64,000 nt of DNA, taken from positions 243,679 to 307,678 of the forward strand of contig CAVQSP010000010.1 of the NCBI GenBank assembly GCA_963715985.1, given 5' to 3'. This stretch comes from an uncultured Thermoleophilia bacterium (GTDB lineage Bacteria; Actinomycetota; Thermoleophilia; UBA2241). Numbering within the stretch: the first letter of the stretch is position 1; every line of letters starts with the position of its first letter. The position numbers and the translations under genes are program-made. The notes below the pieces were generated by a model, which had not been told where the DNA came from, did no database searches, and saw nothing but the letters and a program-made list of their open reading frames with translations. This document shows, piece after piece, positions 46,172-64,000 of this stretch.

Positions 46172-46248
<77 letters not shown>

Positions 46249-46296
46249 GTGATTTGCAGGTACTTCTCCCGCTAGACCCTCCGCTCAGACCCCGTT

Positions 46297-46320
46297 CTGC
46301 AACCATTCTGCAACCCAAAT
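46297..46320 (+). repeat. Boundary repeat A1 (CTGCAACC x2, 11-bp phase)
   Basis: ctgcaacc-att-ctgcaacc-caaat. Confidence 0.8.
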
Positions 46321-46526
46321 GCCTGCGTTTGGCTGGCACGCAAAGGGACTCGCTGGGCCCAATTGGGAGCGCGAACGACAGCACGTGGGGCCCGCCTGCC
46401 CTCCAATGCAGGCTCCTCGCACTCCTGAATGCACGGGCTCCGCAGTAGAATCGCGAGAACAGCTCCGAGGGAGGGTCGGATGCGGTGCCGGGGGCCGGGA
46501 GTCATGAAGCTCAAAGGGCGACAGAG

Positions 46527-49500: not shown

Positions 49501-49946
49501 TGGTCGAGAAGTGGGCCGCGCTGCCTCCTGCGGGAGGGAACTCCGGCTACTCCGGGGTGTTCGTGCCCGGCGCGGCGCGCGTGGCGCGGGCGGCGGGCCG
49601 TAGCAGACTGATTATGCGCCTCGCAGGCACGATCCGCACCGAACTGCCCCTCGATCAGCACGCCCGCGTGACCGTCCAGGCGCTTCACCATGAGACCAGC
49701 GGCGAGCACGAGGCGGCGGCGGCCGGCTTCGCCGCCGCCGCCGCCCGTTGGCACGACTTCGGCGTGCCCTACGAAGAGGGGCACGCCCTGCTGGGCCAGG
49801 GGCGCTGCCTGATGGCGCTCGGCAGAACGCCCGAGGCGGCAGCGCCGCTGAGCGCGGCCCGGGAGATCTTCGCTCGACTCGGTGCGAAGCCTGCGCTGAT
49901 AGAGGTCGACCGACTTCTCGACGACGTCAGCGCTGCACCTTGCTAA
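46527..49946 (+). CDS. Zn-ribbon - class III adenylate/guanylate cyclase - STAND (AAA) ATPase - TPR-like protein
   Basis: CPSC/CPGC, EKFIGDAV, GDAVNTAARL, GEPGIGKS, FEDLHWAD, GGNPLY. Confidence 0.9.
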   Translation: MIACPSCARESPADFAFCPGCGTKLGAEPRPFTDERKVVTTLCCDLVSYTAHSEAADHELIDELLRRYNDLARRLVEGHGGVVEKFIGDAVLAVFGFPHAHDDDAERAVRCALKLTSEAGERAWPDGDTVQVRIGVNSGETYVHTGVDPASGETFLTGDAVNTAARLQTAAPIGAVVVGELTHSLTFKEIAYEELPPVTVKGKREPLALWRAVEPRSRTGTRTSGATATPFLGRAAELRRLQQAFEAASAANQAQFFLLVGEPGIGKSRLVLELARALDERPELITWRQGRCLPYGEGVRFAALADVLKAHAAILDSDDVATVEQKLDAVLPEGDERPWLRQRLRPLLGLEAVQASREENFAAWTLFFRHIASSGPTVLVFEDLHWADEGMLAFVEHLASEKLDVPLLIVGTARPELLTKHPDALKPADGVGRLVLSPLRRKDAARLVSSLLDERLAASVRGPVLERIGGNPLYAEEYVSLLLDRGLLLKTEGVLQLREGEELPLPDSVQAVLAARLDTLPPEHKALLCDAAVYGQSFWCGRVAALAGCGPEDVRSGMAFLAERQLVRVVVSSSLAGETEYLFWHALARDVAYAELPKRARAGKHRAAAGWLEAGAGECVEDLAEVVAHHYVTALELAEALRDTALRGSLVEPAVRTLSLAGDRALRLDVAAAVNALRRALELSPEPGVPRSRLMMSLGKALFIHGDVRESAVVLETAAHDFEVEGERRPAAQCCCWLASAQFLQCDPREAATVARAAELVADQGPCAERAEALELQARIMWGHGDPEEGVRLLDEAVSMFQAVGIEEPINALGRRGGARCAAGDPGGRDDYMRALTAAQSLGLGLEVTQLWVNYLEDLLWIEGPEATLSASREVCGFAHSRGIEGHARNIHTMTVFSLAWVGQWNLALREAASMLALEELGEDRWDVAQLRSTQVLVRTWRGARTDGEVAALLGLVETAAAESVPPYIASRCLLPAAVAMCRDDVAAAARLVEKWAALPPAGGNSGYSGVFVPGAARVARAAGRSRLIMRLAGTIRTELPLDQHARVTVQALHHETSGEHEAAAAGFAAAAARWHDFGVPYEEGHALLGQGRCLMALGRTPEAAAPLSAAREIFARLGAKPALIEVDRLLDDVSAAPC

Positions 49947-50367: not shown

Positions 50368-51429
50368 ATGGACGCCACGCAGCCCACTCAACGGCGTTCC
50401 GCCACAGCCACCTGGACGCTAGCGTTCGTCGTCCTGCTGCTCTGCGCGAGCGCGGTCGTGAGCGCCTGTGGCGCTGCCGGCACGACGACGTCGAACTCAT
50501 CGTCGCCCTCGCCCGGCGAGGTGGCCGCCTCGGTGGCGGCGTCGCCGAGCACGACTCCTCTGCCGAGGGGCGCCGGCCGCGGCACCATCGCCTTCACCAA
50601 GGCCCTCTGGTCCCGCGAGGACTCGGCTGTCCCCCCGTTCGACATCTACGTCGTGCGCAGCGACGGCAGCGGGCTCCGGCGCTTGGCCGCGGGCGCGAGG
50701 GGACCGGCCTGGTCGCCGGACGGCAGCCAGATCGCCTACACCTCGCTCTCCGCCCGCGGCGGCGTCTGGGTCATGAACGCGGACGGCTCCGGCAAGCGGC
50801 GCGTGACGCCCGCCCCGGGCGGGGCGGAGTCGGTCGCGTGGTCCCCCGACGGAAGGCAGATCCTCTTCAGCAGCACCAGCTTCGGCGGCGCCGCCGCCTT
50901 GGGCGGCGCCGACACCCTGGTCGTGGTGGACAGCGACGGCAGCGGCCTCGAGTCCGTGTTCGCAGACACTTCCCGCGGTTCCGGAGTGACGGGCTACCCT
51001 CTCGCCTGGACGCCGGACGGGAGGATCTTCTTCGGCAGGAGGAGCGGGAGCCTGGGCGAGATCTGCTCGCTCGATCGCGGCGGCCGCGGGCTCACCGTCG
51101 TCACGGCCACCCAGGTCCCGCCGAGCTTCTCGCTCTCACGGGACGGCAAGTGGCTCGCGATCTGGGATGGGGACGCAGACCGCCTGCTGCGCATGGCGGC
51201 CAGCGGCCGGGGGCTGGCGGTCGTGCTCGTCGAGGAGGTGTCGCAGTACGAGGGTGGGGGCGGCCTGTCGTCCTGGTCACCGCACGGCGGCCAGCTCGTG
51301 TTCGGCAGGGACTCACGGGGGTCGCTGGCGCCCGGGTCTGTCCTCCACGTCGCCAAGGCCGACGGCTCGGAGGTGTGGGAGGTGCCGAACACGGAGGATG
51401 CCTACGATCCGGCTTGGCGGCCGGAGTAG
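50368..51429 (+). CDS. TolB-like PD40 beta-propeller lipoprotein
   Basis: Lipobox VSAC; repeated WSPDG; ends PAWRP. Confidence 0.8.
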   Translation: MDATQPTQRRSATATWTLAFVVLLLCASAVVSACGAAGTTTSNSSSPSPGEVAASVAASPSTTPLPRGAGRGTIAFTKALWSREDSAVPPFDIYVVRSDGSGLRRLAAGARGPAWSPDGSQIAYTSLSARGGVWVMNADGSGKRRVTPAPGGAESVAWSPDGRQILFSSTSFGGAAALGGADTLVVVDSDGSGLESVFADTSRGSGVTGYPLAWTPDGRIFFGRRSGSLGEICSLDRGGRGLTVVTATQVPPSFSLSRDGKWLAIWDGDADRLLRMAASGRGLAVVLVEEVSQYEGGGGLSSWSPHGGQLVFGRDSRGSLAPGSVLHVAKADGSEVWEVPNTEDAYDPAWRPE

Positions 51430-51490: not shown

Positions 51491-51533
51491 GGCACGGCGG
51501 AGGTCAGGGGTTCGACTCCCCTGCGGTCCACCA
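51491..51533 (+). pseudogene. 3' half of tRNA-Ala (att-like remnant)
   Basis: ggcac-ggcgg-aggtc-agggg-ttcgact-cccct-gcggtcc-acca; U70 pairs with G3 of the 5' halves. Confidence 0.88.
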
Positions 51534-51566
51534 CGACTTTCAGGTAGATCGTGTACCGCGATTCTT

Positions 51567-51621
51567 CCGCGAGACCCTCGAAACGGCCGTCTGCAACCCC
51601 CCTGCAACCCAAATCCGTGCG
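51567..51621 (+). repeat. Boundary repeat A2
   Basis: ccgcgagaccc..gaaacgg..ctgcaacc-ccc-ctgcaacc-caaatccgtgcg. Confidence 0.8.
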
Positions 51622-52854
51622 CCTCGATGGGAGCGGACGGGGCTCGCCAGCACCCAACGGGACTACTTCCCCCTTGGACGGGCACCGCCCAAGGATACGG
51701 GACTCCTGACAAGTGCAGCGCCATGCACGGTAGGCTGTCATCCGTCGAACCCAGCACTGTGGTCACCACACAGCGTCGGGGGGCCACTGGTGAGACCGAC
51801 GCGCGGGCTGGTCTGCGTGCTTCTTGGGGTCGTGCGCTGCTGGAGCCAAGGGGCCACGACGCAGGAGGGGTCGCGATGAAACGACATGGGTTCAAGCCCT
51901 GGCTGCTGGTGTCGGTCGTCGTGCTTGTCTTCGGGCTGGGCGGTCTCGTTGCCGGGTGTGGCGGCACAAACGCGACGACCACCGCCACGGCCACCCGGAC
52001 GCCGCTCGAGATCAGGGTCTCCCCAAACGTCCGCTACATGACAGAGAGGGAGGGAGACAATCGCCCCCTGCTCGATGTGTGCGCCCCGGAGCAGGTGGGT
52101 CCCTGGCCCCTGGTCGTGATGCTCCACGGCGGCTCGCTGAACAAGGAGTCGTTGAGAGACTGGGCGTACATGGCGGCAGGACGGGGCGCCGTGGTGTTAG
52201 TGCCCGACTGGCCCCGCTTCCACGGCACCATGGAGGAGGGCTTCACCCTTGCGCAGCTGCGGGCGGCGCTCGTCGGGCAGATCGGCGACGTCGCTGCCGC
52301 CGTCCGTTTCGCCCGCGGTACCGCCGCGCGCTATGGCGGGGACCCCGGACACCTGACCCTCTTCGGCCATTCATACGGGGCCATGGCGGCGGCGATGGAA
52401 GCCTTCAGCGCGGCTCCCGCATCCGAGGGTGGCCTCAAGGGCGCCGGCTCGACGATCCCGGAGTCGCTCGTGGTCTTCGACGGCGACTACCTGCTCGCAC
52501 AACAGGACCCCTGGGACGCTGAACTGAAGGAAGACCCCGGCATCATGCAGGTCTACACGCCGTGGCAGCACCTCGGGCGGCGGGTGGACTTCCCTATCAC
52601 CGTCATCGGAGCGGGCGATCCCAGCTTGAGCCGGCGGCTCGGCGACCCGTGGGCGAAGGACTCCTGGTTCGTCGTGCGCGACCCATCCGGGGAGATCCGG
52701 CGAGGCCTGCAGGAGCTCGGGGCTTTCGACAAAGACGTCTACCACACCCGCTATCTCAACGAGGATCTGCTTGAGCTGTTTGCGCAGCGACTGCGGGCGG
52801 ACGGCGACACGGTGAACTACGTCAGACTCACCGACTCATCCCACGTCCTACTAG

Positions 52855-54509
52855 CCTCGATCTTTCACGAGTGCTCTCTGGTTCTCCTTCGCAGGCCTTT
52901 GCTGGCCCCGTCACACGCTGACGCCCGCCTGCAGGCATCGCCGCGGACGTGGCCGAGGCCTGGCAGCGCCGGCGCGGGTCCTCGGCACCGGGTGCGGCCC
53001 GTTTGAAGGCATGCTGCGGCCGGCCGTGGCACGCCTTGCGTCTGCTCCGGCGGCCGACCAGACGTCAACCTTAGGGCAAGGCCTGCAGGCGCCTGAAGGC
53101 GGCGACCACCTCCTTCGCCCAGGGCCAGCGGCGCGGCAGGCGCAGGCGCACGCCGCGAGCGTGCCGCACGATCCGGCCGGCGACGTGCAGGAGGCGATAG
53201 CGCAGGCGCTTAGGCTCGCAGGCGGCGAGCTCCGTGCCGGCAAGCAGCAGCCTCCGTGCCCAGGCCAGCAGGTCGCAGCCGCAGAGCACGAGCTCGAGCC
53301 AGGCCGCGTTCAGGGCGTAGGCGTGGAAGGGCAGGTTGCGCAGGCCTGAGGCCTTGGCGCAGCGGATCGCGTCCTCGATCGCGGCGCGCTGCCGGTGCAG
53401 CTGCTCGAGGCGCGCGATGCGCTTGCCCTGCTGGTTCGTGAGCATGACCTGGAAGCGGTGGCCGTCGGCGTCAGAGAAGCTGAGCTGCGCGCCCGGATGG
53501 GGGCGCTCACGGCGGCAGAGCGCGCGCGTGCCCGGCGGCCAGCCCGGCAGGGGCAGGGGCAGCTCGGCCACCCAGGCACCGTCGCGCTCTGCTCCCTCGG
53601 CGTCCAGGGCCGGCAGCCAGGCGCTCTCGGGCACGGCCAGGCACGCGGCGCGCACGCGCTCCGTGAGGTCGTAGCCCACCGAGAAGGCGAGCCCGCGGGC
53701 GGCGACCGCCTCGAGGAAGTCGTGCGTGGCGCCGCCCGAGTCGCAGCGCACCAGGGTGCCGCGGCCGAGCGAGTCGGCGGGCAGCTGGGCGAGCGCCGCC
53801 TCGAGCACGGCGATGTGGTCGTCGGCGGTGTTGGCGCCGGCGTTCCCCGGGCGCAGCACGCCGGCCAGCGCCTCGCCCGTGGTCGCCTCGAAGCAGAGCA
53901 GCGGGTGGAAGCCGAAGCCGCCCTTGTAGGTGCCGGCGGCGCCCTCCTTCTCGGAGTGGGCCGTGACGAGCGTCGCATCGATGTCGAGGACGAGGCGCCG
54001 GGGCATCTCGCCGAGGCCCCAGGCGCGCGCCCGGGCCGCGGCGCGCGCTTCGCGGACAGCGGTGAGCTGCTCCGCCCCGAGACGCTCAAGGCAGCGGTAC
54101 GCCGTGGCCTCGGAGGCGACCGCGCCGAAGAGCACCTCTTGGTCTCTGAGCGCGCCCAGGTCGCTGAGGCAGTCGCCGCCGTCGGCGAGCATGACGGCCA
54201 GGTCGCGCACCACGCGTCCGGGCTCGTGGCGCACCTTGCGTGAGTGGACGCGCAGGGCCTCGCTGAGCGCGCTCGTCAGGCCCAGCGCGTCGGCCAGGCC
54301 GGAGAGCAGCGCGGTGCCGGAGCGCGAGGTGAGGCCGCCGGCGTCGCAGGCCACTTCAATCCGGGAAAGCGGCGTGGTAGCGTGCACCTGCACGGTGATC
54401 CTCCTGGGCGCGGTCCTGCGGGTCTAGTCAACACGCATTATCGCTGCTCAGGAGGATCTTTAACAGGGCGACTCAGCGAAACCTCCGGGGTCTTCGTGAA
54501 GTATCGAGG
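52855..54509 (-). mobile_element. IS1380-family insertion sequence
   Basis: 16-bp IRs cctcgatctttcacga / tcgtgaagtatcgagg; CTAG target duplication. Confidence 0.92.
53071..54393 (-). CDS. IS1380 transposase
   Basis: LTSRSG, LDIDAT, GFHPL, LRPGNAG, RCDSG, RAAIEDAIR. Confidence 0.92.
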   Translation of the reverse strand: MQVHATTPLSRIEVACDAGGLTSRSGTALLSGLADALGLTSALSEALRVHSRKVRHEPGRVVRDLAVMLADGGDCLSDLGALRDQEVLFGAVASEATAYRCLERLGAEQLTAVREARAAARARAWGLGEMPRRLVLDIDATLVTAHSEKEGAAGTYKGGFGFHPLLCFEATTGEALAGVLRPGNAGANTADDHIAVLEAALAQLPADSLGRGTLVRCDSGGATHDFLEAVAARGLAFSVGYDLTERVRAACLAVPESAWLPALDAEGAERDGAWVAELPLPLPGWPPGTRALCRRERPHPGAQLSFSDADGHRFQVMLTNQQGKRIARLEQLHRQRAAIEDAIRCAKASGLRNLPFHAYALNAAWLELVLCGCDLLAWARRLLLAGTELAACEPKRLRYRLLHVAGRIVRHARGVRLRLPRRWPWAKEVVAAFRRLQALP

Positions 54510-54689
54510 CTAGGCTGCGAGGGCGAGGTGAGCCTGCTTGACGCGCTCGTACCGGACACGCAGCCATGAGGCCACCGTTGCGTCTATGGAGGCGCTGATC
54601 TGCCGGCGGCACGCTAGCGGCCACCACACACCGGCGGGGAGCCACTGATGGGAGCGGCCCTCTCGGGAGCCGGGGGGAAGGGGCAGGCC

Positions 54690-55226
54690 ATGAAGAGGTC
54701 GGCAGGATCCCACCTACGCGCAGCCATCGCCGTCGCACTCTCGCCACTGCCGCTGGTCGCGACGCTCGGGCTCACCGCGTGCGGGGGCTCGAGCACGACT
54801 GAGTCGACCTCGCCTCGCGCGAACACTGCGCTGGCCGCGGGTGAGGCCATCTTCCGAGCGGGCGTCTTTGACGGCCGGCCGATTCCCCGCTCGGACGGCA
54901 GCGCCGGCGGGATGATGGGGGGCGGCGGCATGGGAGGCGATATGATGGCCGGCGGCTGCGCGACTTGCCACGGCCCCGATGGGCGCGGTCGCACCACTTC
55001 GTCCTTCTCGGCTCCCAACATCGCGTACACGAACCTGACAGACCGCGCGGGCATGCTGATGCCTGACGGCACGCGCGGACCGGCCTACACCGACGCCTCC
55101 ATTCGCAGCGCCGTGGTCCAAAGCACAGACCCCAAGGGCGACAAGCTCGCCCGACCGATGCCTCAGTGGCGGCTCTCCGACGAGGAGTGGGGCGCCCTCC
55201 TCACGTACCTGAAGACGCTCAGGTGA
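54690..55226 (+). CDS. Monoheme cytochrome c lipoprotein
   Basis: LTAC lipobox, CATCH heme motif, MP axial-ligand motif. Confidence 0.8.
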   Translation: MKRSAGSHLRAAIAVALSPLPLVATLGLTACGGSSTTESTSPRANTALAAGEAIFRAGVFDGRPIPRSDGSAGGMMGGGGMGGDMMAGGCATCHGPDGRGRTTSSFSAPNIAYTNLTDRAGMLMPDGTRGPAYTDASIRSAVVQSTDPKGDKLARPMPQWRLSDEEWGALLTYLKTLR

Positions 55227-55353
55227 CGGTCCAGCTGCAGGCCGTGATCACGTTGGCCGGACAGCAGGGGCCGGGAGCGCGAACTGGTTCGCAACGTTGA
55301 AGGGTGGGCATACGGGAAGCATCGCTCGCCTGCGTCTCAGCGGAGGTTGACTT

Positions 55354-55686
55354 ATAGATCCCGGTGAGCCAGAGCCCTACGAACCGGAGACTGCGCAATC
55401 GGCGAGTCGACCGGTCGTCGTCACCGCGGCTGAGACAGGCGGTCAGCGTCTCGCCCGGGGCGCGCATCGGACGCTGCTCTATGCCTACGTCGTTGCGGCG
55501 GTCGTCCTCCTCGTCATCCTGATCGCGCTGATCGTTGCGAACACCGGCGCCGTCACGGTGGGCTGGGTGTTCGGCAGTTCGTCCGTCTCTCTGGTGTGGC
55601 CGGTGATGGGCGCCGCCATCCTCGGCCTGTTCTTGGGCATGATCATCGGTGCGCTGTTGCGTCATCGGACGCGGCGGCCGCGCTAG
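55354..55686 (+). CDS. LapA (DUF1049)-like small membrane protein with ATA start (absent from ORF track)
   Basis: GGAGG-7nt-ATA; two TMs around ANTGAVTVGWVFG; basic C-terminus. Confidence 0.55.
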   Translation: MDPGEPEPYEPETAQSASRPVVVTAAETGGQRLARGAHRTLLYAYVVAAVVLLVILIALIVANTGAVTVGWVFGSSSVSLVWPVMGAAILGLFLGMIIGALLRHRTRRPR

Positions 55687-55756
55687 GCCTGTGGGGCGCG
55701 GCCGCGAGGAGGAGAAGCCCCGTTGCAGGGCAGAGGCATCCTTGGGAGACCCTGCC

Positions 55757-55917
55757 CTGCGAGCCCTCCGCGAGACCCCCGAAACGGTCGTCTGCAACCA
55801 TTCGTTGCAGCCCAAATCCGTGCGTCTGCATGTGTGCGTTTGGATGGGACGCGATGGTGCCGTCTGGGACTGGGTGGGACAGTGGTGGTCGGCTGGCGAG
55901 CTCGGCTGACCTCCGCT
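55757..55917 (+). repeat. Boundary repeat A3 (no tRNA half)
   Basis: cctgcgagccctccg...ctgcaacc...cccaaatccgtgcg...ggctggcgagctcggctgac shared with A2/A4. Confidence 0.75.
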
Positions 55918-56098
55918 TTCGGGGTATGGGCACGTGGAGCATCGTCAGCCCCCGACAGGGCATTCCAGGAGGCACCAGCACGAGATCGCGGCTGCCCCGC
56001 ACCCGTTCACGACCCCGCCCCCGCGGCTCAGGCTGCAAGGGCTCCCCGCTTGCAGGTAGTCTCTACGCAGTCGACGCAATCGCACAAGGAGATCGAAG

Positions 56099-56845
56099 GT
56101 GGCCCTGCTCCTCGACCCCGTGAACCTGCTCGCCCTGCTGACCCTGACGCTCCTCGAGATCGTCCTCGGGATCGACAACGTCATCTTCATTGCCATCATC
56201 ACCAACGCGCTGCCCAAGGAGAAGCGCGGTCTGGCGCGCCGGCTGGGCCTCGGTCTCGCACTCGGCGGCCGGGTCGCCATGGTCCTCGGCGTCTCGTGGT
56301 TGCTCTCGCTCGAGCATCCGCTGTTCAGCGTCTTCGGCCGCGAGATAGGCGTGAGCGATCTCATCCTCATCGCGGGCGGCTTCTTCCTGCTCTACAAGTC
56401 CGTGCGCGAGATCTTCAACACCACCGAGCTCCGCGAGTCGGAGCAGACCGAGGTGCGCCGACGCACGTCGCTGGTCGCCGTGATCCTGCAGATCGTGGTC
56501 ATCGACATGATCTTCGCCATCGACTCCGTGCTCACGGCGGTCGGCATGACCGGCGAGGTCATCCTCATCATCATCGCCATCGCCATCGCCATCGCCGTGA
56601 TGATGTTCTACGCCGGCCCCGTGGCCGAGTTCATCAACGGGCACGTCAGCGTCAAGCTGCTGGCGCTCGCGTTCCTCGTGCTCATCGCCGTGATGCTCAT
56701 CCTCGAGGGCGTCGGCGAGCCCGTCGACCGCACGATCGTCTACGTCGCCATCCTCTTCGCCGTCGGCGTCGAATACCTGAACTACCGGCGCCGCCGCAAC
56801 CTCGAACGCCGCGGCGGCGTGATCCCCGGCCAGGAAGGGGTCTGA
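56099..56845 (+). CDS. TerC family membrane protein
   Basis: LEIVLGIDN, IDMIFAIDSVLTAVG. Confidence 0.9.
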   Translation: MALLLDPVNLLALLTLTLLEIVLGIDNVIFIAIITNALPKEKRGLARRLGLGLALGGRVAMVLGVSWLLSLEHPLFSVFGREIGVSDLILIAGGFFLLYKSVREIFNTTELRESEQTEVRRRTSLVAVILQIVVIDMIFAIDSVLTAVGMTGEVILIIIAIAIAIAVMMFYAGPVAEFINGHVSVKLLALAFLVLIAVMLILEGVGEPVDRTIVYVAILFAVGVEYLNYRRRRNLERRGGVIPGQEGV

Positions 56846-56913
56846 GCGGGTGACTGTCGCCGCTGTCCGGCTGAGGATCGAAGCGACGCGATCGACCGAT
56901 TCCCCGACCACGC

Positions 56914-57062
56914 CGCTCATGCAGGGGACCCGCGCGTACTACTGAGAGTCGTCGCACCCGAAGCGTGTTCGGGAGTGCCTGCGGGGGTCTCGGCCCAGCG
57001 TGATCTGTGCGACGGAATTGACAGAACCGACGATCCGGCCCAGATCTGTCGGCGCTGTCGAT
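56914..57062. repeat. Boundary repeat B2 ending in imperfect hairpin
   Basis: gacagaaccgac-gat...atc-t-gtcggcgctgtc; colinear with B1. Confidence 0.75.
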
Positions 57063-57413
57063 CGCGGGACCGACTGGCCAGCGCCACCCCTGGCCCCCGC
57101 CGGTCTTCTCAGCGGCGAGAGCGACGACCCGTTCGAGCCCATCGGTCGTGTGTGGAGCTCGGGCGTACCTCCAGGAGCTGCGGCACCCTGACCGCGTCCC
57201 GACCTGCCCGAGCCGATGCCGGTGTCGCATCGATCTCTCGCCGGCGTCCTCCCGCGCGTCGGCGTCCTCGTGGTTCGGCGCCTCCGCGGCAAGGTGCTAA
57301 ATGCGGACGATCGCGGAACGATACGGAATGACCGCAGGGGGCGTGCGCCAGCGTCGTCACCGCGAGTCAGGGATGCTCTCGCGGGCATACGGGTTCCTCG
57401 AGGGAGGCGCATC

Positions 57414-57989
57414 ATGAGCGTTGTTGACGAAGCGACGGAAACGCAGATCCAGAACATTCAGACACGCACGGGGAAGACGCTCGACGAGCTGTTCGACCTC
57501 ATCCGTGAGAGCGGCCTGATCAAGCACGGCGAGATCCGGGAGATGCTCAAGCGTGACCTCAACATGGGTCACGGCGACGCCAACGCGCTCGCCGCCGCGT
57601 TCCTGAAGTCCGTTGGTCAGAGTGCCACTCCAGCCGCGGGAGTGGCGACGGAAGACGCCGTCGGTGCGATCTACGCCGGTGCCAAGGGCGAACTGCGGCC
57701 GATCCACGAGAAGCTGATGGCGGCCATCGCGGCGCTGGGGCCGTTTGAGATCGCGCCGAAGAAGGCGTACGTCAGCCTGCGCCGCAAGAAGCAGTTCGCC
57801 ACTGTCGGGCCGGCGACGAAGACGCGGGTCGACGTAGGACTCAACATGAAGGGTGTCCCAGCTACAGAGCGCCTGATCGAACTGCCGCCCGGCGGCATGT
57901 GCCAGTACAGAGTCAGCCTGACCGAGGTCAGCGAGGTTGACCAGGAGGTGATGGGTTGGGTCCGGTCAGCCTACGAGGGCGTGGGCTGA
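57414..57989 (+). CDS. DUF4287/DUF5655-type protein
   Basis: NIQTRTGK, KHGE, GHGDAN; PKKAYVSLRRKKQF. Confidence 0.75.
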   Translation: MSVVDEATETQIQNIQTRTGKTLDELFDLIRESGLIKHGEIREMLKRDLNMGHGDANALAAAFLKSVGQSATPAAGVATEDAVGAIYAGAKGELRPIHEKLMAAIAALGPFEIAPKKAYVSLRRKKQFATVGPATKTRVDVGLNMKGVPATERLIELPPGGMCQYRVSLTEVSEVDQEVMGWVRSAYEGVG

Positions 57990-58080
57990 GCCGGGAAACG
58001 CGGCACCTGATTGCGATGAGCCCGCGGAGTTGGATGAAGTCGCGCGTCAGCGCGACCGCACCCATCGAACGCCCCGAACC

Positions 58081-58123
58081 GGCACGGCGGAGGTCAGCGG
58101 TTCGAACCCGCTGAGGTCCACCA
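58081..58123 (+). pseudogene. 3' half of tRNA-Ala, variant 2
   Basis: ggcac-ggcgg-aggtc-agcgg-ttcgaac-ccgct-gaggtcc-acca. Confidence 0.88.
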
Positions 58124-58145
58124 CACACTCGCGGGTAAGTCGCGT

Positions 58146-58306
58146 CCTGCGAGCCCTCCGGAAGACCCCTGGAATGGCCGCCGACAACCCGCTGACAAAC
58201 AGACTGAGTGCAACCCAAGTCCGTGCGTCTTGATGGGCCTTGCTGGCGTCGCCTGGGACTGGATGGGACGGTAGCGGCCGGCTGGCGAGCTCGGCTGACG
58301 TCCGCT
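58146..58306 (+). repeat. Boundary repeat A4
   Basis: Homologous to A3; gtgcaacccaagtccgtgcg. Confidence 0.75.
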
Positions 58307-58476
58307 CTCGCACCACAGCCGAGCACGCGTCAGCACCCAATGGCTGCAGCCCATCTCGGCCTCCAACGCACCGGAACGAGCGGGCTTCGCAGTAGACTCG
58401 TCTCGAGCAGCTCCGAGGGGGTCGGTCGGATGCAGCCGCTGGAGCCAGGGGACGGGCAACACAACGGGCGACGCAG

Positions 58477-58582
58477 ATGATCGCCTGCCCCAGCTGCGGC
58501 TTCGAGGCTGCCGACGATGCCGCCTTCTGCTCCAAGTGTGGAGCGAGGCTCGCGAGCCCTCCTTCTGCGCACGAGGTGGAGT
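58477..58582 (+). pseudogene. N-terminal stub of a second Zn-ribbon cyclase-STAND gene truncated by IS3
   Basis: MIACPSCGFEAADDAAFCSKCG; upstream region homologous to 46440-46540. Confidence 0.75.
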
Positions 58583-58615
58583 TGGAGTTGCCCCGCTTCT
58601 GTGGACAGGTCAGGG

Positions 58616-59507
58616 CTACGCAGTCGTAGCCTCCAGCGGGGCGGTGGCGAGCATCTTCTCGTAGTCGGCAGGGCTCATCTGGCCGAGCGCCGAGTGGCGC
58701 CTGCGTGGATTGTAGAACGCCTCGATGTAGCTGAAGATCACGGTCCGCGCCTCGTCCTTGGTCTTGAAGCGCCGACGGTTGATGAGCTCGGTCTTGATCG
58801 AGGCCATGAAGCTCTCCATGGCGGCGTTGTCATAGGCGTCGCCGCGCGAGCCCATGGAGGGCAGCAGGCCGCTGTCCGCGAGCAGCTTGCCGAAGACGAG
58901 GCTGCGATACTGGCTGCCGCGGTCCGAATGGTGGATGAGGTCTGCATCCGGCCTACGTCGCGTCACGGCCATGCCAAGGGCGTCGTAGACGAGGTCGGCC
59001 CTCAGGTCGTCGCGCATCGACCAGCCCACGGAAGTAGCGGCTGCAGGCGTCGACCACGGCCGACAGGTAGAGCCAGCCCTGCCAGGTGGGCACGTGGGTG
59101 ATGTCGGCGAACCAGAGCGCGTTGGGCCTCTCGGCGCTGAAGTCGCGCTGCACGAGGTCGGGGGCCGCCGGGGCTTCGCCGCCGGGGCTCGTCGTGCCCA
59201 CACGGTAGCGCCGCCGCGAGACGCCCTCGAGGCCGGCCGCGCGCATGAGGCGGGCGACGCGCTTTCTGCCCACGTGCACGTCGTGTGCGTCCGCCAGCTC
59301 GGCATGGATGCGCGGGGCCCCGTAGATGCCGTCGGTCTCGTCGTGGATGGCCTGGATCCGCTCCGTGAGCGCAGCGTCGCTCCTGGCCCGATGCGAAGGC
59401 GGCCGCCTCTGCCAGGCGTAGAAGCCCGCGCGGCTCACACCGAGCACGCGGGCAAGACGGGAGACCGGATGGTGTGGCTTCTCTTCGGCGATCAGGCGAT
59501 AGCTCAT
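58616..59507 (-). CDS. IS3 OrfB (rve integrase core); indel near 59030
   Basis: YGAPRI, WFADIT, HHSDRGSQY, DNAAMESF, YNPRRRHS. Confidence 0.9.
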
Positions 59508-59800
59508 CGCGACGGATCGCTCTCCCGGGCGAAGAAAGCCGCGGCCTTCTTGAGGATCTCGCGCTCCTCACGCAGGACCCGGTTCTCGCGACGCAGACGG
59601 CGCAGCTCGTCGCGCTCGTCCGTGGTCAGGCCGGGGGCCTCGCGGGCGTCGACCTTCGCCTGCTGCACCCAGTGGCGCAGGCTCTCCGTCGAGCAGCCGA
59701 GGTCGGCAGCGATCTCCGACAGGCGCAGGCCGCTGGTGCGCGCCAAGCGCACCGCTTCAGCACGGAACTCCGGCGTGTAGGGGGGCTTGGTCTTCCCCAT
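59504..59800 (-). CDS. IS3 OrfA
   Basis: YTPEFRAEAV, ELRRLRREN, ILKKAAAFF. Confidence 0.9.
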   Translation of the reverse strand: MGKTKPPYTPEFRAEAVRLARTSGLRLSEIAADLGCSTESLRHWVQQAKVDAREAPGLTTDERDELRRLRRENRVLREEREILKKAAAFFARESDPSR

Positions 59801-59866
59801 GTGAACTCCTTTCGCGGGAGCTTGCGCTCCCTATCGTCAGGTGTCCACGAAACCGGGGCAACTCCA

Positions 59867-60202
59867 GGCAAGCACGAGCTCCCAGACGACGGGAAGCAGC
59901 TTCGCGTCGTCAGCCCGGGCTCCGAAATCGCATGCCCAGAGATCGTGGAAGCGCTTCTCTGCAAGTGCGTCGACGACGCCGCGATGCACCGTGTACGCGT
60001 GCTGAAGGAGGAAGCTGGAGCCGCGGTACATACCCCAGCTCGCGAGGTAGAAGCCTAGCTGCAGCGCTGCCTGGTCACGGTCAGCGGCTAGCCCCCCAGG
60101 TGTCGTGCGCTGGAAGTACCCGTAGCAGTGCTCCCAGGAGCGGTAGCGGTGGTGCTCCCCGGCGACGCCGAGATAGGCGCAGATCTCACGCTCAATGGTC
60201 AT
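59867..60202 (-). pseudogene. Hypothetical protein truncated by IS3
   Basis: RYRSWEHCY, LGFYLASWGMYRGSSFLL; frame runs into the IS end. Confidence 0.65.
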
Positions 60203-61145
60203 GGTGGGCGTCAGAGGGGCTCGGCGCATCGACGGGGAGCGGGCCGAAGAGCTCCCCGACCGTGCTCGCGGACAGGAGCCTCGCAAGGTTCGTGTAGCGT
60301 GGCCCCTGCATGGTGCCTGGGGTGGCGTCGCCGTAGGGAATTGGCGCGATCCCCTGTGCCGGCTCGGCGAAGATGAGCTTGTACTTGCCCGCGTCGCCGT
60401 AGGGCTCAATGCGCTCGACGGGTGCGTAGTGCGTGATCGCCGACACGGGTGCGGTGCGATATGCGGCGATGAACTTGATGCGCTGCAGCATGCCGCCGCT
60501 GATGCGGATCGCGTACCAACAGCCCTCGCCGATGAAGACCTCCTGGAAGCCCTCCTCCTGTGCCGGCACCACGATCGTGTCACGCTCGTCCGTCCCGGGT
60601 TGGGGGACAGGGACGTCAACGGTCACCACTGGCGCAGGCTTCTCGAACACGCGCACGCCGAGGAGGGGGAGGATGCGCAGCATCTCGTCCAAGAACCCCT
60701 TGGTGTCAGCGCGCTCCCACTCTGAGAGGCTCGGCTCCTTGGGGTGCGTCGCGTTGTCGAGGTGACACTGCTCCGCCTTGTGCGCCAGGTCGATGAGCGC
60801 GTGCTCCAGCCAGGTCGTGTGGGCGCGATTGAGCGCCGTCCCCTTGGAGACGAACGCGTAGCCCCAATCCCAGAAGTCCTTGTTCGCGTAGTGCGAGTCG
60901 AGGCGCGTACGGATCTCGTCGCCCTGTCCGACGTAGACAGTGGGCAGATCATCAGCTGCGCCCTCGCCCGGGCCGCTGAGGATGTAGACGCCAGGCGTGC
61001 CGAACTCCTTGCGCTTGCTGATGCTCGGCCACAAGGAACGAGGAAAGGCGATGCCCCAGCCGGTCCAGTTCTGCCGATCGACGATCTTCACGCCGTCGGG
61101 GTCGCCGTCGACGACGAAGATATGAATGGTATATGGCTCAGCCAT
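60192..61145 (-). CDS. GIY-YIG nuclease with accessory C-terminal domain
   Basis: PGVYIL...VYVGQG, RLDSH, LE, N motifs. Confidence 0.8.
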   Translation of the reverse strand: MAEPYTIHIFVVDGDPDGVKIVDRQNWTGWGIAFPRSLWPSISKRKEFGTPGVYILSGPGEGAADDLPTVYVGQGDEIRTRLDSHYANKDFWDWGYAFVSKGTALNRAHTTWLEHALIDLAHKAEQCHLDNATHPKEPSLSEWERADTKGFLDEMLRILPLLGVRVFEKPAPVVTVDVPVPQPGTDERDTIVVPAQEEGFQEVFIGEGCWYAIRISGGMLQRIKFIAAYRTAPVSAITHYAPVERIEPYGDAGKYKLIFAEPAQGIAPIPYGDATPGTMQGPRYTNLARLLSASTVGELFGPLPVDAPSPSDAHHDH

Positions 61146-61340
61146 CAGGACCCCCAGACTCCACAGCCGCGCGCACCGAGCAGGCAGACTGTTCTTGGGG
61201 CGACGGTATCACCCTTGGGGGACGGCGGGGAGGAACTGATGGCACCGCCGACTCAGCTGCGACCGAGGCGACGAAGGCGACCGAGCTCGGGTTGCGGATC
61301 GCCTTCGTCCTCAACGTCTTCACGGTCTTCATGGCTCCGT

Positions 61341-61359
61341 CTGCAACCCGTCCGCAACC
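61341..61359 (+). repeat. Boundary repeat A5
   Basis: ctgcaacc-cgt-ccgcaacc. Confidence 0.75.
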
Positions 61360-61426
61360 CGCGGGGCCGGGGCTTAAAAACTCCTTATTTTACCCTTTAT
61401 CCTCGGCTTATACTTGTCCCCTTCGT

Positions 61427-61458
61427 GGGCCGCTAGCTCAGTTGGGAGAGCGCCGCCT
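61427..61458 (+). pseudogene. 5' half of tRNA-Ala with own -10 (TATACT 61409-61414)
   Basis: gggccgc-ta-gctc-agttggga-gagc-g-ccgcc-t, breaking in the anticodon loop. Confidence 0.88.
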
Positions 61459-61489
61459 CACAGCCGTCCCTGGACGCCATCATCACTCC

Positions 61490-61852
61490 ATGAAGTCGCG
61501 GAACGTCATACTGGCTCTGCTGGGCGTGGCGGTGCTGGTCGGCGCGAGTCACTACGCCGGACCTGGAGAGCAGTTGGTGCACGCCTACGCGGGCAACGTC
61601 GCCGTCTCCTTCGCCCTGTACTTCGCGACGCTCTCGGCGACGCAGCGCTGGCCACGTTCTCGACTTGGCGCAGCGCTCATCACGCTGTTCGCCGTCACGC
61701 TCTTCGAGATTAGCGACGGGTTCGGCGTCATGGACAACGTGTTCGACCAGTGGGACTTCGTCGCGAACGGCGCCGGCCTAGCCCTCGCGGTCATCACAGA
61801 CGTTGCCACCGCCAGGCCCACTGAGGGGCCGGGAGCGCCGGGGACTCCATAG
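61490..61852 (+). CDS. Small membrane protein (120 aa; VanZ-like DxWD motif)
   Basis: About four hydrophobic segments; FDQWDFVANGAG. Confidence 0.6.
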   Translation: MKSRNVILALLGVAVLVGASHYAGPGEQLVHAYAGNVAVSFALYFATLSATQRWPRSRLGAALITLFAVTLFEISDGFGVMDNVFDQWDFVANGAGLALAVITDVATARPTEGPGAPGTP

Positions 61853-61910
61853 ACTCGGCGGAACGTCTGCTCGGCCTCGTGGAGAACGCTGAAGGTCTTC
61901 ACGGCCGCAT

Positions 61911-61929
61911 CTGCAACCATTCTGCAACC
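61911..61929 (+). repeat. Boundary repeat A6
   Basis: ctgcaacc-att-ctgcaacc, identical to the A1 core. Confidence 0.8.
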
Positions 61930-62000
61930 GAGATGCTCGTGACTGGATAGACCTTGGACGGGTCTTCCCTGATGTCCCGGGGTATACTTGACCGCTTCGT

Positions 62001-62043
62001 GGGCCGCTAGCTCAGTTGGGAGAGCGCCGCCTTTGCACGACGG
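62001..62043 (+). pseudogene. 5' half of tRNA-Ala(TGC) with own -10 (TATACT 61983-61988)
   Basis: gggccgctagctcagttgggagagcgccgcc-tttgcac-gacgg, then no T arm. Confidence 0.88.
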
Positions 62044-62295
62044 CTCCAGCGACGAGCCACCCCCCAAGACGCAAGAGACGAAGCGACGCACCGGGCGGAC
62101 CGGCGCAACTGGACTCCCGCATAGACGATCCCTGCAGGCACCCTCGCCCTGCTCGTCGTGGAGTGCGCACCCGCACCGATTCGGTCTGAGGAGCACTCGA
62201 CGAGAGAAACCGCCGGGCGACCGTGAGGTCGCCGGGCCGTTTCTTCGTCCTGTGCCGCGTCCAGGCGAGTGCCGGGCAGCCGGGCTCGCCGGCCG

Positions 62296-62746
62296 TCACT
62301 GGCGGTCGAGTTGCAGGAGCGGATAGCCCGCTGCCTCCCAGGCCTCGAAGCCGCCGTCGAGGTTGGAGATGTTGGTGTAGCCGGCCTCGACCCACGCCTG
62401 CGCGGTGAACCGGCTGATGCGGTCGCTGCGGCAGTAGACGACTATCTCCGCCGCCTTGTCCTGCGGCAGTTCGCCGACGAGCTCGACGGCCTCGTCGTAC
62501 GGAAGGAAGAGGTCGGTCCGCTCGATCTCCCCGGCGTAGGGGATGTGCGTGTTGATCAGCACGAAGTCCTTCTGCTTCAAGCATGTCGGCCAGCTGGGCC
62601 GGCTCGATGTCGGTGTAGCTGGCCGGCGACGAGCCCACCGAGGATCCGGAGGCGTCTCCCTGGGCCCCGCCGCATCCGGCCAGCAGCGCGACCACCGCGA
62701 AGGACACGGCGAGCATCGCCAGCCGCCCGCGCGCTCCGCGGGACAC
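62296..62746 (-). CDS. Rhodanese-domain lipoprotein; frameshift near 62580
   Basis: LAGC lipobox; VVYCRS, NLDGGFEAW. Confidence 0.75.
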
Positions 62747-62916
62747 CAGTTACCACCGACTCTGCCGAGTGGGTGCGGTCGGCTCCGCGACCTTCACGTC
62801 GCGCTGCCTTCGCCTGTAGGGCGGGCTCTTACGTCACCGCTCATACGTCTTACGTCCGGACCTTGATCTTGCCCCACAGAACCGGGGCCGGCGCGCCGTG
62901 CGCGTGAACGCCGGCG

Positions 62917-63337
62917 TCAGTTCATCAGGGAGAACAGGTGGGGACTGCCGTCGATCGCCACGCAGTGAACGAACTTGCCGACCAGCGAAGGATCGTTCGA
63001 CTTCGTGATCGGCCCTCCGAAGTGGACTTCCGTCGCGGAGTGGGCGTGGATGTGTTCCACCGACGCCGTGAACGCCAGGCCGTTCTGGATCTCCAGTTGC
63101 AGGCCCCGTTCGCCGGCTGGTGCTCCTCGCCAGGGGCAGCGGGTCCATCGCACGGGCCTCGAACGCCGTCGCCGCCGTGCTTCCCCCATAGTCGAACCCG
63201 ACCTCACCTTTGACAGACACTCGCGGATAGCTGGCCGGATCGGCGCTCGCCGCCGGGGCGAACGCAGTCGCTGCCAGCAGAAGAGCGAGAGCGAACGCCA
63301 GGGCTGCCACGGGCAGCAGTCTCTGCTTGGTGGCCAT
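62917..63337 (-). CDS. Secreted hypothetical protein; frameshifted
   Basis: GAGGAGG RBS; signal peptide ending ASA. Confidence 0.5.
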
Positions 63338-63685
63338 GAGAACCTCCTCGAATGACGCATCGTGAGATGATGTGTCTTGACGGGCAGCTGCCCGCTGCAG
63401 TCATGTGCCCGAAGATCGGTGTGCCCAATCGCTCTAAACCGCGCCGGGGCGAGGTGTTCGTCTTGACGGCGGCGTGCTGCCGCCCTTCCGCTTCCGTCTT
63501 CCAGAGGCCCACGATCGCAGCCGCGTCGGGTGTTCCCAGGTCGACGACGCGACCAGGAAGACGCCTGTGGGGAGGACGAGACGCACGGCTTCACCCACAC
63601 GGCGACCGTGATGCACGCGGGAGCATCAGATGCGGTTGGGCGCCGCTGATCGCATGCTCGGTCGCGCGCAGGCCACGCGGCGCTC

Positions 63686-63734
63686 TACTTGTCCCCTTCG
63701 CGTGCCGCCAGCTAGCTCAGCTGGGAGAGCGCCG
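63686..63734 (+). pseudogene. Degenerate third tRNA-Ala 5' half with leader
   Basis: tacttgtccccttcg...gctagctcagctgggagagcgccg matches 61411-61454. Confidence 0.75.
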
Positions 63735-64000
63735 TGAAGGGTCCGTTGGTATCAGCGCCTGACGACCGTGCAGCCGTGCCTGCACGGGTCGGCCCGTGTG
63801 CGTGGCAGGCGACGTCTGGCCTACGCCGTGGGTCCCTCTTCTCCGCCGCTCATGGGCGAGTATCTCCTCGAGAACCTCAAGTTCACGGAGCTCTATCTCC
63901 ACTTGAGCTTGCCGGACGCGCGCGGCGTCGGGTGCCCCCAGGGCGCGGATCGCCGCGAACCTCCGTCTGCACACGAGCGTCCCACGAGTAGGGGCACGGA

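Follow-up and report, generated by a model that had tools for sequence, protein, structure and literature searches.

The window analysed here is a 64,000-nucleotide stretch that ends with contig C10 of an uncultured Thermoleophilia bacterium, and it contains the 3' half of a tRNA-Ala gene upstream of a 5' half on the same strand, raising the question of whether the two belong to one mobile element, to a permuted gene, or to separate insertions. The earlier note proposed that a single 10.5-kb element bounded by the halves would rebuild a promoter-driven tRNA on circularisation, with the meeting of a 3'-end array and a 5'-end array as the alternative. Comparison with relatives supports the alternative: the halves are very likely attachment-site scars of repeated mobile-element insertion into tRNA genes, with a 3'-type trail meeting a 5'-type row, and the apparent permuted tRNA would be an ordinary by-product of these integration scars.

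The 3' half (51492-51533) starts with GCACG and ends with CCA, and the 5' half (62001-62039) ends with GCACG, preceded by a promoter-type box. Each half occurs as a single copy in the window, where chance alone would give 0 matches. When the two were joined in a script, ARAGORN called the product as tRNA-Ala(tgc), 76 nt long, in which all four stems pair and G3:U70 is present. The tRNA-Ala(UGC) that the earlier note had assembled through the shared GCACG is confirmed, as is the upstream placement of the 3' half. The 3' halves begin with GCACG at anticodon position 35, and 5' halves of the BOX class end with ...TTGCACG(G); as in islands of the Islander type, the fragments are end pieces of a tRNA gene broken at the anticodon loop. 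The joined sequence is identical (76/76) to the intact genes of relatives G006, G007 and G018, and the 62001 half gave a valid tRNA-Ala(tgc) with all 3' halves tried, its own or others (4/4); the perfect fit is therefore non-specific. An identical 3' half at C17:32528 fits the 62001 half equally well. The promoter claimed for the 5' half is a TATACT box lying some 12 nt ahead of position +1; it is conserved and also precedes the intact genes of relatives, but a sigma-70 and terminator consensus scan of 61250-62200 returned no full promoter and no terminator. The halves of the proposed nested pair, beginning at 58083 and 61427, exist but do not match, as the 61427 copy ends near position 32 and its trial join with the 58083 half through a two-letter filler was not called as tRNA-Ala, showing a G6.A67 mismatch.

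The features from 46172 to the contig end are the following.

46172-46248 (+): intact tRNA-Ile(GAU), ARAGORN; Rfam tRNA 74.2 bits
46249-46480 (+): p' arm (the integrase-proximal one) following tRNA-Ile; double motif CTGCAACCATTCTGCAACC at 46297-46315
46485-49946 (+): cargo, 1153-aa adenylate cyclase/AAA/TPR protein (Pfam)
50368-51429 (+): cargo, PD40 beta-propeller protein (Pfam)
51492-51533 (+): displaced tRNA-Ala 3' half, position 35 to CCA, identical to the 3' half of the intact G006, G007 and G018 genes
51534-51830 (+): p' arm with double CTGCAACC at 51591-51609, then riboswitch-like leader at 51721-51808
51627-53006 (+): cargo, alpha/beta hydrolase (Pfam)
53071-54393 (-): IS, DDE_Tnp_1_4 transposase (Pfam)
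54648-55226 (+): cargo, cytochrome c (Pfam)
55744-55921 (+): orphan p' arm without a 3' half in front, a further unit boundary between the two halves
56099-56845 (+): cassette, unnamed protein, in segment 55977-57990 (Pfam scan)
57216-57989 (+): cassette, DUF4287/DUF5655 protein, in the same segment (Pfam)
58083-58123 (+): second tRNA-Ala 3' half, also displaced; variant form with a T arm like that of the tRNA-Ala(CGC) on an island in G002
58124-58310 (+): p' arm of the second 3' half, then the beginning of a truncated gene paralogous to that at 46485
58953-59800 (-): broken IS3-family transposase (HTH_Tnp_1, HTH_21, partial rve; Pfam)
61341-61459 (+): 5' unit 1, with CTGCAACC motif at 61341-61359, TATACT box at 61409-61426 and tRNA-Ala 5' part at 61427-61459
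61911-62085 (+): 5' unit 2, with motif at 61911-61929, TATACT box at 61983-62000, 5' half at 62001-62039, hairpin at 62040-62064 and BOX CAAGACGCAAGAGACGAAGCG at 62065-62085
63684-63735 (+): 5' unit 3, with degenerate TATACT-type box and degenerate tRNA-Ala 5' part (63706-63735)

Three or more arm-bounded units and two IS elements make up the mosaic of the 10.5-kb interval between the halves, and a signal-peptide ORF begins at 61490, after 5' unit 1. Several parts recur in relatives. The p' arm at 46249-46480 also lies behind tRNA-Ile in G002 and G013. Homologues of the PD40 gene lie upstream of tRNA-Ala arrays in G017 and G009, and the junction of PD40 gene, 3' half, arm and leader recurs with 70-79% identity at G064:C4:1183001-1183337, immediately after a tRNA-Ala copy that is full-length but slightly degenerate and belongs to the array downstream of the intact gene. 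The stretch 55977-56846 is 94% identical to G064:C4 at about 1,200.7-1,201.6 kb, in the downstream array, and 80% identical to G017:C24 at about 122.4-123.2 kb, inverted in an upstream array. The stretch 57337-57990 is 81% identical to G064, and most other stretches common with G064 in that comparison reach 65-89%, against 94% for the one cassette.

Pfam scans of the interval revealed no recombinase between the halves. PF00589 and PF00239 had no match on C10 or in C17:1-46 kb, the whole genome has no PF00239 match to a serine recombinase, and the units thus lack the tyrosine integrase that the Islander definition places inside each island. No integrase adjoins the arrays in G006, G009 and G017, and those adjoining the C8 and G002:C1 units are only truncated, which counts against the array reading as regards current activity. 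Integrases may have acted on these units in trans.

Repeated flanks accompany the fragments. A CTGCAACC-bearing arm lies behind 3' halves and in front of 5' halves, and a hairpin and BOX follow the BOX-class 5' halves, placing conserved attP-type arms beside the fragments. With up to two mismatches, the double motif has 9 matches in the genome, all of them beside tRNA genes or halves; it lies on both sides of a displaced 3' half in G060 and just upstream of a full-length integrase gene in G045. Since they flank the halves and precede a full-length integrase, the double CTGCAACC repeats, which sit some 100-120 nt to each side of the crossover, probably serve as arm-binding sites for the integrase. 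The hairpin and BOX to the right of 62039 recur at 19 other 5' units, 18 in nine relatives and one at G000:C8, and also in G064, with homology limited to about 300-400 bp, as would suit a junction of the attP type; the DNA to the right of 62039 is a conserved element arm and not target DNA. The hairpin between GCACG and BOX is clearly stable (z < -1) in 10 of 20 units, with a mean z of -1.1, which is suggestive of a stable structure. To the left of the 3' halves no conserved arm was found, a point against the array reading. The arm was also considered as the 3' end of an integrase gene on the other strand, a candidate rejected on six-frame translations without an integrase motif.

Displaced promoter and 5' halves lie upstream of one intact tRNA-Ala(UGC), on the same strand, in 10 of 12 congeneric Thermoleophilia loci (G002, G006, G009, G011, G013, G015, G017, G018, G021 and G064; exceptions G004 and G007), with 1 to 21 copies per locus and the maximum of 21 contained in 33.5 kb. 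Displaced 3' halves lie downstream in G002, G006, G010, G011, G015, G017, G021 and G064. The arrangement sought by Islander, a cognate intact gene on the same replicon and strand with a 5' fragment upstream or a 3' fragment downstream, is thus present in 10 of the 12 loci, and in relatives the newest 5' copy is fused to the intact 3' half. The 3'-before-5' order of the window differs from the layout of the ten canonical loci, which counts against the array reading; a 3' half ahead of 5'-half sequence occurs only in G064 and G020, where the 5' part belongs to a full-length degenerate copy. Promoter capture by cassettes was rejected on a weak orientation bias: co-oriented ORFs number 68 of 104, and among the 44 units that contain an ORF, 27 have a co-oriented first one.

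These observations are consistent with a mechanism in which tyrosine-integrase elements would insert in the anticodon loop of tRNA genes, leaving halves as scars. One element type would bring a 3'-half copy and push the old 3' half downstream, while a rarer mirror-image type would bring a promoter and 5' half and push the old promoter and 5' half upstream, with both types presumably accumulating at tRNA-Ala(UGC) in this Thermoleophilia genus. In the order of events that we infer for the window, 3'-type units (51492, the orphan arm at 55744, and 58083) would have come to abut a 5'-type row (61427, 62001 and 63706), which is expected to run up to an intact tRNA-Ala located past the end of the contig. 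The whole arrangement probably lies within a large composite island, with the tRNA-Ile at 46172 as its probable anchor (attL side) and everything downstream held inside.

The window ends with the contig, 265 nt past the third 5' half, and the expected intact tRNA-Ala is consequently unassembled. The intact identical tRNA-Ala(UGC) that the earlier note proposed to look for elsewhere in the genome is absent from the 22-contig, 88.8%-complete assembly, so the canonical layout is visible in relatives only, and the intact downstream gene named in that note as refuting its circle is supplied by analogy with them. The tRNA-Ala locus is scattered over the contig ends of C10, C17, C8 and C5, with further displaced 3' halves on C17 at 6137, 32538, 38042 and 38995, a degenerate full-length tRNA-Ala copy at C17:4453-4528, and more 5' halves on contigs C5 and C8. 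The 3' half of a displaced tRNA-Ile at C17:44034-44066 (+), with 3 mismatches, is the sole sign that C10 may continue into C17; synteny with relatives gave no usable matches as proof of this adjacency because the islands are too variable. In G007 and G002, where the tRNA-Ala loci are simple, the flanking DNA maps to C4, C5 and C8, not C10; the row on C10 may accordingly be a second locus or island-borne. Public sequencing runs contained at most 0.09 of the sampled words of 60800-64000, and the four best of them matched the conserved modules (tRNA halves, arms, IS) through short contigs that come from other organisms; among the 15 of 67 joints listed, none led from 62039 back to 51492.

A single element spanning 51492-62039, with attP inside its own tRNA-Ala and excision rebuilding the promoter-driven gene on a circle, is very improbable on this evidence. 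Its perfect join through GCACG is matched by the identical half on C17, and the CTGCAACC motifs, although roughly equidistant outside the joined gene like two attP arms, are accompanied on the right by the conserved element arm of 19 other units in place of target DNA and on the left by a junction that sits in an ordinary downstream array in G064. Complete motif-promoter-tRNA-Ala-motif modules are known from G002:C1 and G015, the genome has no assembled copy of tRNA-Ala(UGC), and integrase-mediated recombination between two scars is formally possible, but the interval lacks a recombinase and, far from being a coherent element, contains two IS elements, an orphan arm and a further half of each kind, and these inner halves (58083/61427) do not match. 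Nor did an empty site emerge, as in relatives that possess the left-flank gene the sequence does not run on into the right flank, and the circle favoured in the earlier note is accordingly not supported.

The order on C10 could also stem from a strain-mixed bin in which 3'-half and 5'-half arrays were wrongly joined through repeated arms. The repeated arms of the window, 60-93% alike over 30-90 nt, are too short and too divergent to have caused a misjoin, relatives show counterparts of the unit boundaries, and a 3' half ahead of 5'-half sequence is also present in the 5-contig assembly G064, making such an artefact very improbable despite a contamination of 7.29%, many contig ends overlapping the interiors of other contigs at 95-98% identity, and the dispersal of the locus among several contig ends. 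A genuinely split or permuted gene, its halves transcribed apart and joined as RNA, is scarcely credible: the break in the anticodon loop, the TATACT box retained upstream of the 5' half and the absence of an intact gene from the assembly would suit it, but the ordinary intact genes of relatives are identical to the join, many halves are surplus, no complementary sequence follows the 5' half or precedes the 3' half, and the halves lie 10.5 kb apart in an incomplete assembly.

On the favoured reading of integration scars, repeated tRNA-gene insertion has built unusually long rows of small gene cassettes in these uncultured soil and sediment actinobacteria. The genus displays the extent that scar build-up can reach, with the promoter-bearing 5' halves on one side, 3' halves opposite and almost no integrases, and the locus serves as a caution that perfect half-tRNA joins in draft genomes are easily over-read. 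It is conceivable, though unlikely, that tRNA-Ala(UGC) acts as a two-sided, integron-like gene-capture platform with integrase-less cassettes moved in trans, the 3'-before-5' scars being able to yield a circle with a complete promoter-driven tRNA-Ala. Each cassette would then be bounded by a tRNA half and a CTGCAACC arm, and integrases acting in trans would insert and excise the cassettes and pass them between strains. If cassettes still move, tRNA genes would form a general gene-capture platform in uncultured soil and sediment actinobacteria, one that island finders demanding an integrase and a 2-kb minimum would miss.

At title and abstract level, the literature contained no description of long integrase-less rows of tRNA 5' fragments or of Thermoleophilia islands. 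The permuted tRNA genes of Cyanidioschyzon merolae and the split tRNA genes of Nanoarchaeum equitans exist as sole copies with halves that are adjacent or carry complementary leaders; the window resembles them in the upstream position of the 3' half and the break in the anticodon loop, but its halves are distant and redundant, lack complementary flanks, and have normal counterparts in relatives. Integrons combine an IntI-type integrase, attI and a common promoter at one end with attC sites and co-oriented cassettes. The arrays here similarly consist of many small units, mostly of one to three genes, with a short recombination site between them and content varying among close relatives, but they have no adjoining IntI-type integrase or attI and do not qualify as integrons, their sites are tRNA halves with about 300-bp arms instead of attC hairpins, and their gene orientation is only weakly biased.

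Islander covers tyrosine-integrase islands of at least 2 kb in tRNA and tmRNA genes, each leaving a displaced tDNA fragment, and documents both fragment orientations and tandem arrays, with 3760 of 3919 islands carrying a 3' fragment, 159 a 5' fragment, and only 4 tandems of three or more (PMC4383910). The likeness lies in co-oriented copies of tRNA gene ends that begin or end in the anticodon loop, in attP-sized conserved arms, and in the intact gene of relatives at the expected array end. The differences are that the window's units have no integrase in or near them, that units mostly measure 0.5-4 kb, many below the 2-kb minimum, that no cognate intact gene is assembled, and that the 3'-fragment-upstream order is rejected by Islander's filter. 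An island type that displaces the 5' fragment and brings in a new promoter and 5' half was reportedly described in 2002 in the Journal of Bacteriology as an 'Integrative genetic element that reverses the usual target gene orientation'. Each 5' unit here likewise comprises an arm, a TATACT box and a 5' half, but almost all lack an integrase, and rows reach 21 units in 33.5 kb against the 4 tandems of three or more in all of Islander. Tandem ssrA-specific islands of Dehalococcoides similarly arose by repeated site-specific insertion at one small RNA gene, giving islands parted by gene-end repeats, but they duplicate the ssrA 3' end and carry their own integrases (PMC3146451). Here, in contrast, both tRNA gene ends are duplicated and integrases are missing or truncated. 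The mechanism is a known one, in an unusually extensive and integrase-poor form.

The tRNA-Ala 3' half and 5' half are each present as a single copy in the window, where chance predicts no match. In the source genome (G000) the window covers C10:243679-307678, up to the last base of that contig. Together with the further copies in G000, the tRNA-Ala pieces are as follows.

51492-51533, window: 3' half, beginning with GCACG and ending in CCA
62001-62039, window: 5' half, with GCACG at its end
58083, window: 3' half
C17:6137: 3' half
C17:32538: 3' half, identical, with TTT directly before it
C17:38042: 3' half
C17:38995: 3' half
61427, window: promoter-led 5' half
63706, window: promoter-led 5' half
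C8:180869(-): promoter-led 5' half
C5:44356(-): promoter-led 5' half
C17:4453-4528: full-length degenerate copy, no ARAGORN call

Joined through GCACG by script slicing, the halves at 51492 and 62001 form a 76-nt tRNA-Ala(tgc) with G3:U70 present (ARAGORN), confirming the observation of the earlier note. At 76/76 positions this join matches the intact tRNA-Ala(UGC) of the relatives G006, G007 and G018, and each of the four 3' halves tested completes the 62001 half to a valid tRNA-Ala(tgc); the perfect fit thus shows only that both are unmutated copies of the tRNA-Ala gene of the genus. Because GCACG starts at anticodon position 35, the 3' halves are not assignable to UGC over CGC. The copies at 58083 and 61427, previously described as a nested pair, are not a pair: the 61427 copy ends near position 32, and their trial join has a G6.A67 mismatch and receives no tRNA-Ala call from ARAGORN.

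ARAGORN identified two tRNA-Ala(CGC) genes and one tRNA-Ala(GGC) gene in the 22 contigs of G000, with no intact tRNA-Ala(UGC) among them; the missing gene probably fell into a gap of the assembly at this repeat-rich locus. The full-length copy on C17 carries changes at the normally invariant U8, U33 and T54, a T-stem mismatch, and the CTGCAACC motif upstream, and looks like a decaying tRNA-Ala copy. Other calls in this genome include tRNA-Pyl(cta) at C13:555126-555198 and tRNA-SeC(tca) at C13:139538-139635.

A conserved, non-coding arm of ~200-250 nt lies after every 3' half and contains the double repeat CTGCAACCnnnCTGCAACC ~60 nt beyond the CCA; the intact tRNA-Ile (46172), tRNA-Glu(CTC) of G013 and G006, and a 3' half on C8 from a different tRNA have this arm behind them too. 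The same repeat lies ~65 nt upstream of every 5' half, each of which is preceded by a TATACT box, as are the intact genes of relatives. With at most two mismatches allowed, the double repeat has nine matches in the G000 genome, each of them adjacent to a tRNA gene or half. A displaced 3' half in G060 has the repeat on either side, the two ~240 nt apart. In G045 (C69) the repeat is found immediately upstream of an integrase gene of full length, whose identity to the truncated integrase at the C8 unit is 69%. These CTGCAACC repeats are probably arm-type integrase sites. No integrase remnant is encoded on the reverse strand of the arm. At C8:174350-174560(+), a short ORF joins the CTGCAACC motif region, in reverse complement, to a C-terminal motif of tyrosine integrases (...RLGHASLGITLDTYSHV); it resembles what a deletion would leave of an integrase adjoining its arm.

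The stretch between the halves is not an element; it holds the following features.

Alpha/beta hydrolase, DDE transposase and cytochrome c genes
55744-55921: orphan arm, with no 3' half
Two small cassettes, then the second 3' half and its arm
Broken IS3 transposase, an unnamed gene and the second 5' unit

Searches of C10 and of C17:1-46 kb found neither a tyrosine nor a serine recombinase. The leaders preceding the hydrolase and cytochrome c genes match the c-di-GMP-II-GAG riboswitch model below threshold, with 33.6 bits at 51721-51808 and 36.0 bits at 54579-54668, respectively (gathering score 40); homologous leaders occur after other 3'-half arms (C17 ~32.7 kb; G064 ~1,183.2 kb) and beside 5' units in G009. 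The tRNA-Ile arm is followed by a 1153-aa zinc-ribbon/adenylate-cyclase/AAA/TPR protein (window 46485-49946). After the arm of the 58083 half come a homologous leader and the opening codons of a paralogue of this protein (~58470 on), which breaks off ahead of the broken IS3.

The main inference of the earlier note was that excision of the DNA between the halves would build a promoter-driven tRNA-Ala on a circle. Both junctions speak against this. To the right of 62039, a short hairpin and then CAAGACGCAAGAGACGAAGCG follow, a combination repeated at 18 units in nine relatives, on C8 of G000, and in G064, with homology around the 5' half confined to ~300-400 bp; this recurrence and limit identify the right flank as the element-side arm of a 5'-type junction rather than target DNA. 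On the left, the junction made up of PD40 gene, 3' half, arm and riboswitch-like leader is also found in G064 at 70-79% identity. There a full-length but slightly degenerate tRNA-Ala copy with its arm stands directly upstream of it, and both lie in an array downstream of the intact gene, the canonical position for a displaced 3' half. The circle-borne tRNA-Ala is unsupported. Of the sequencing runs searched, none contains the sequence of this locus, and the contigs that matched parts of it came from other organisms.

Between crossover and CAAGACGCAAGAGACGAAGCG lies a segment of 20-28 nt with variable sequence, both at window 62040-62085 and in 19 other units. It often folds into a hairpin with GGC of the former anticodon stem in its outer pairs, clearly stable in half of the 20 units. 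One speculative role for this hairpin would be to shield the element from the displaced tRNA promoter. Obligate promoter capture by the cassettes is not supported, since the bias of their ORFs towards the direction of the displaced promoter is weak (68/104 co-oriented), as it is for the first ORF (27 of the 44 units having one).

G000 and its relatives are metagenome-assembled genomes of uncultured Thermoleophilia. Displaced promoters with 5' halves lie upstream of one intact, same-strand tRNA-Ala(UGC) in 10 of the 12 relatives' loci fetched, in the following numbers.

G006: 21 (in 33.5 kb)
G009: 7
G011 and G021: 5 each
G017 and G018: 4 each
G013: 3
G002, G015 and G064: 1 each
G004 and G007: 0

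On the downstream side, displaced 3' halves are present in G002, G006, G010, G011, G015, G017, G021 and G064. Window 55977-56846 is 94% identical to a G064 unit downstream of tRNA-Ala and 80% identical, inverted, to a unit within the upstream array of G017. Downstream of its intact gene, G064 (C4:1179442-1181011) has a 3' half called tRNA-Ala(tgc) by ARAGORN, its 5' part being unlike the 5' half, and the full-length copy, lacking one T-arm base and CCA; whole-gene copies therefore also travel with such elements.

The order of the window, 3' halves ahead of 5' halves, could arise where the 3'-scar trail from one tRNA-Ala copy abuts 5' scars leading to the next. Ordinary scar arrays of G064 and G020 contain 3' halves that precede a degenerate tRNA-Ala copy of full length, and the tRNA-Ile island of G002 combines a truncated integrase with two complete tRNA-Ala(CGC) genes that the motif flanks. 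On C17, a tRNA-Ile 3' half displaced to 44034(+), with three mismatches, and a contig start bearing the motif, the degenerate tRNA-Ala and more 3' halves suggest that the end of C10, a gap and the start of C17 belong to a single composite island, >62 kb long and with tRNA-Ile as its anchor. Some findings make this less certain. Synteny comparison gave no confirmation of the C10-C17 link; the regions flanking the simple tRNA-Ala loci of G007 and G002 have their matches on C4, C5 and C8. The G000 bin reaches 88.8% completeness at 7.29% contamination, and its contig ends are redundant at strain level: many of them match other contigs' interiors at 95-98% identity (e.g. C2/C15, C3/C9, C6/C11, C14/C20), indicating a strain mixture or haplotigs.

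Both halves are genuine scars left by integration through a known mechanism. What deserves attention is the genus-wide, two-sided, largely integrase-less build-up of tRNA-Ala scars, of which a literature search in titles and abstracts found no description. In Islander (PMC4383910), 3760 islands carry a 3' fragment and 159 a 5' fragment, with only four tandems of three or more; the relatives' loci match both of the fragment orientations catalogued there.
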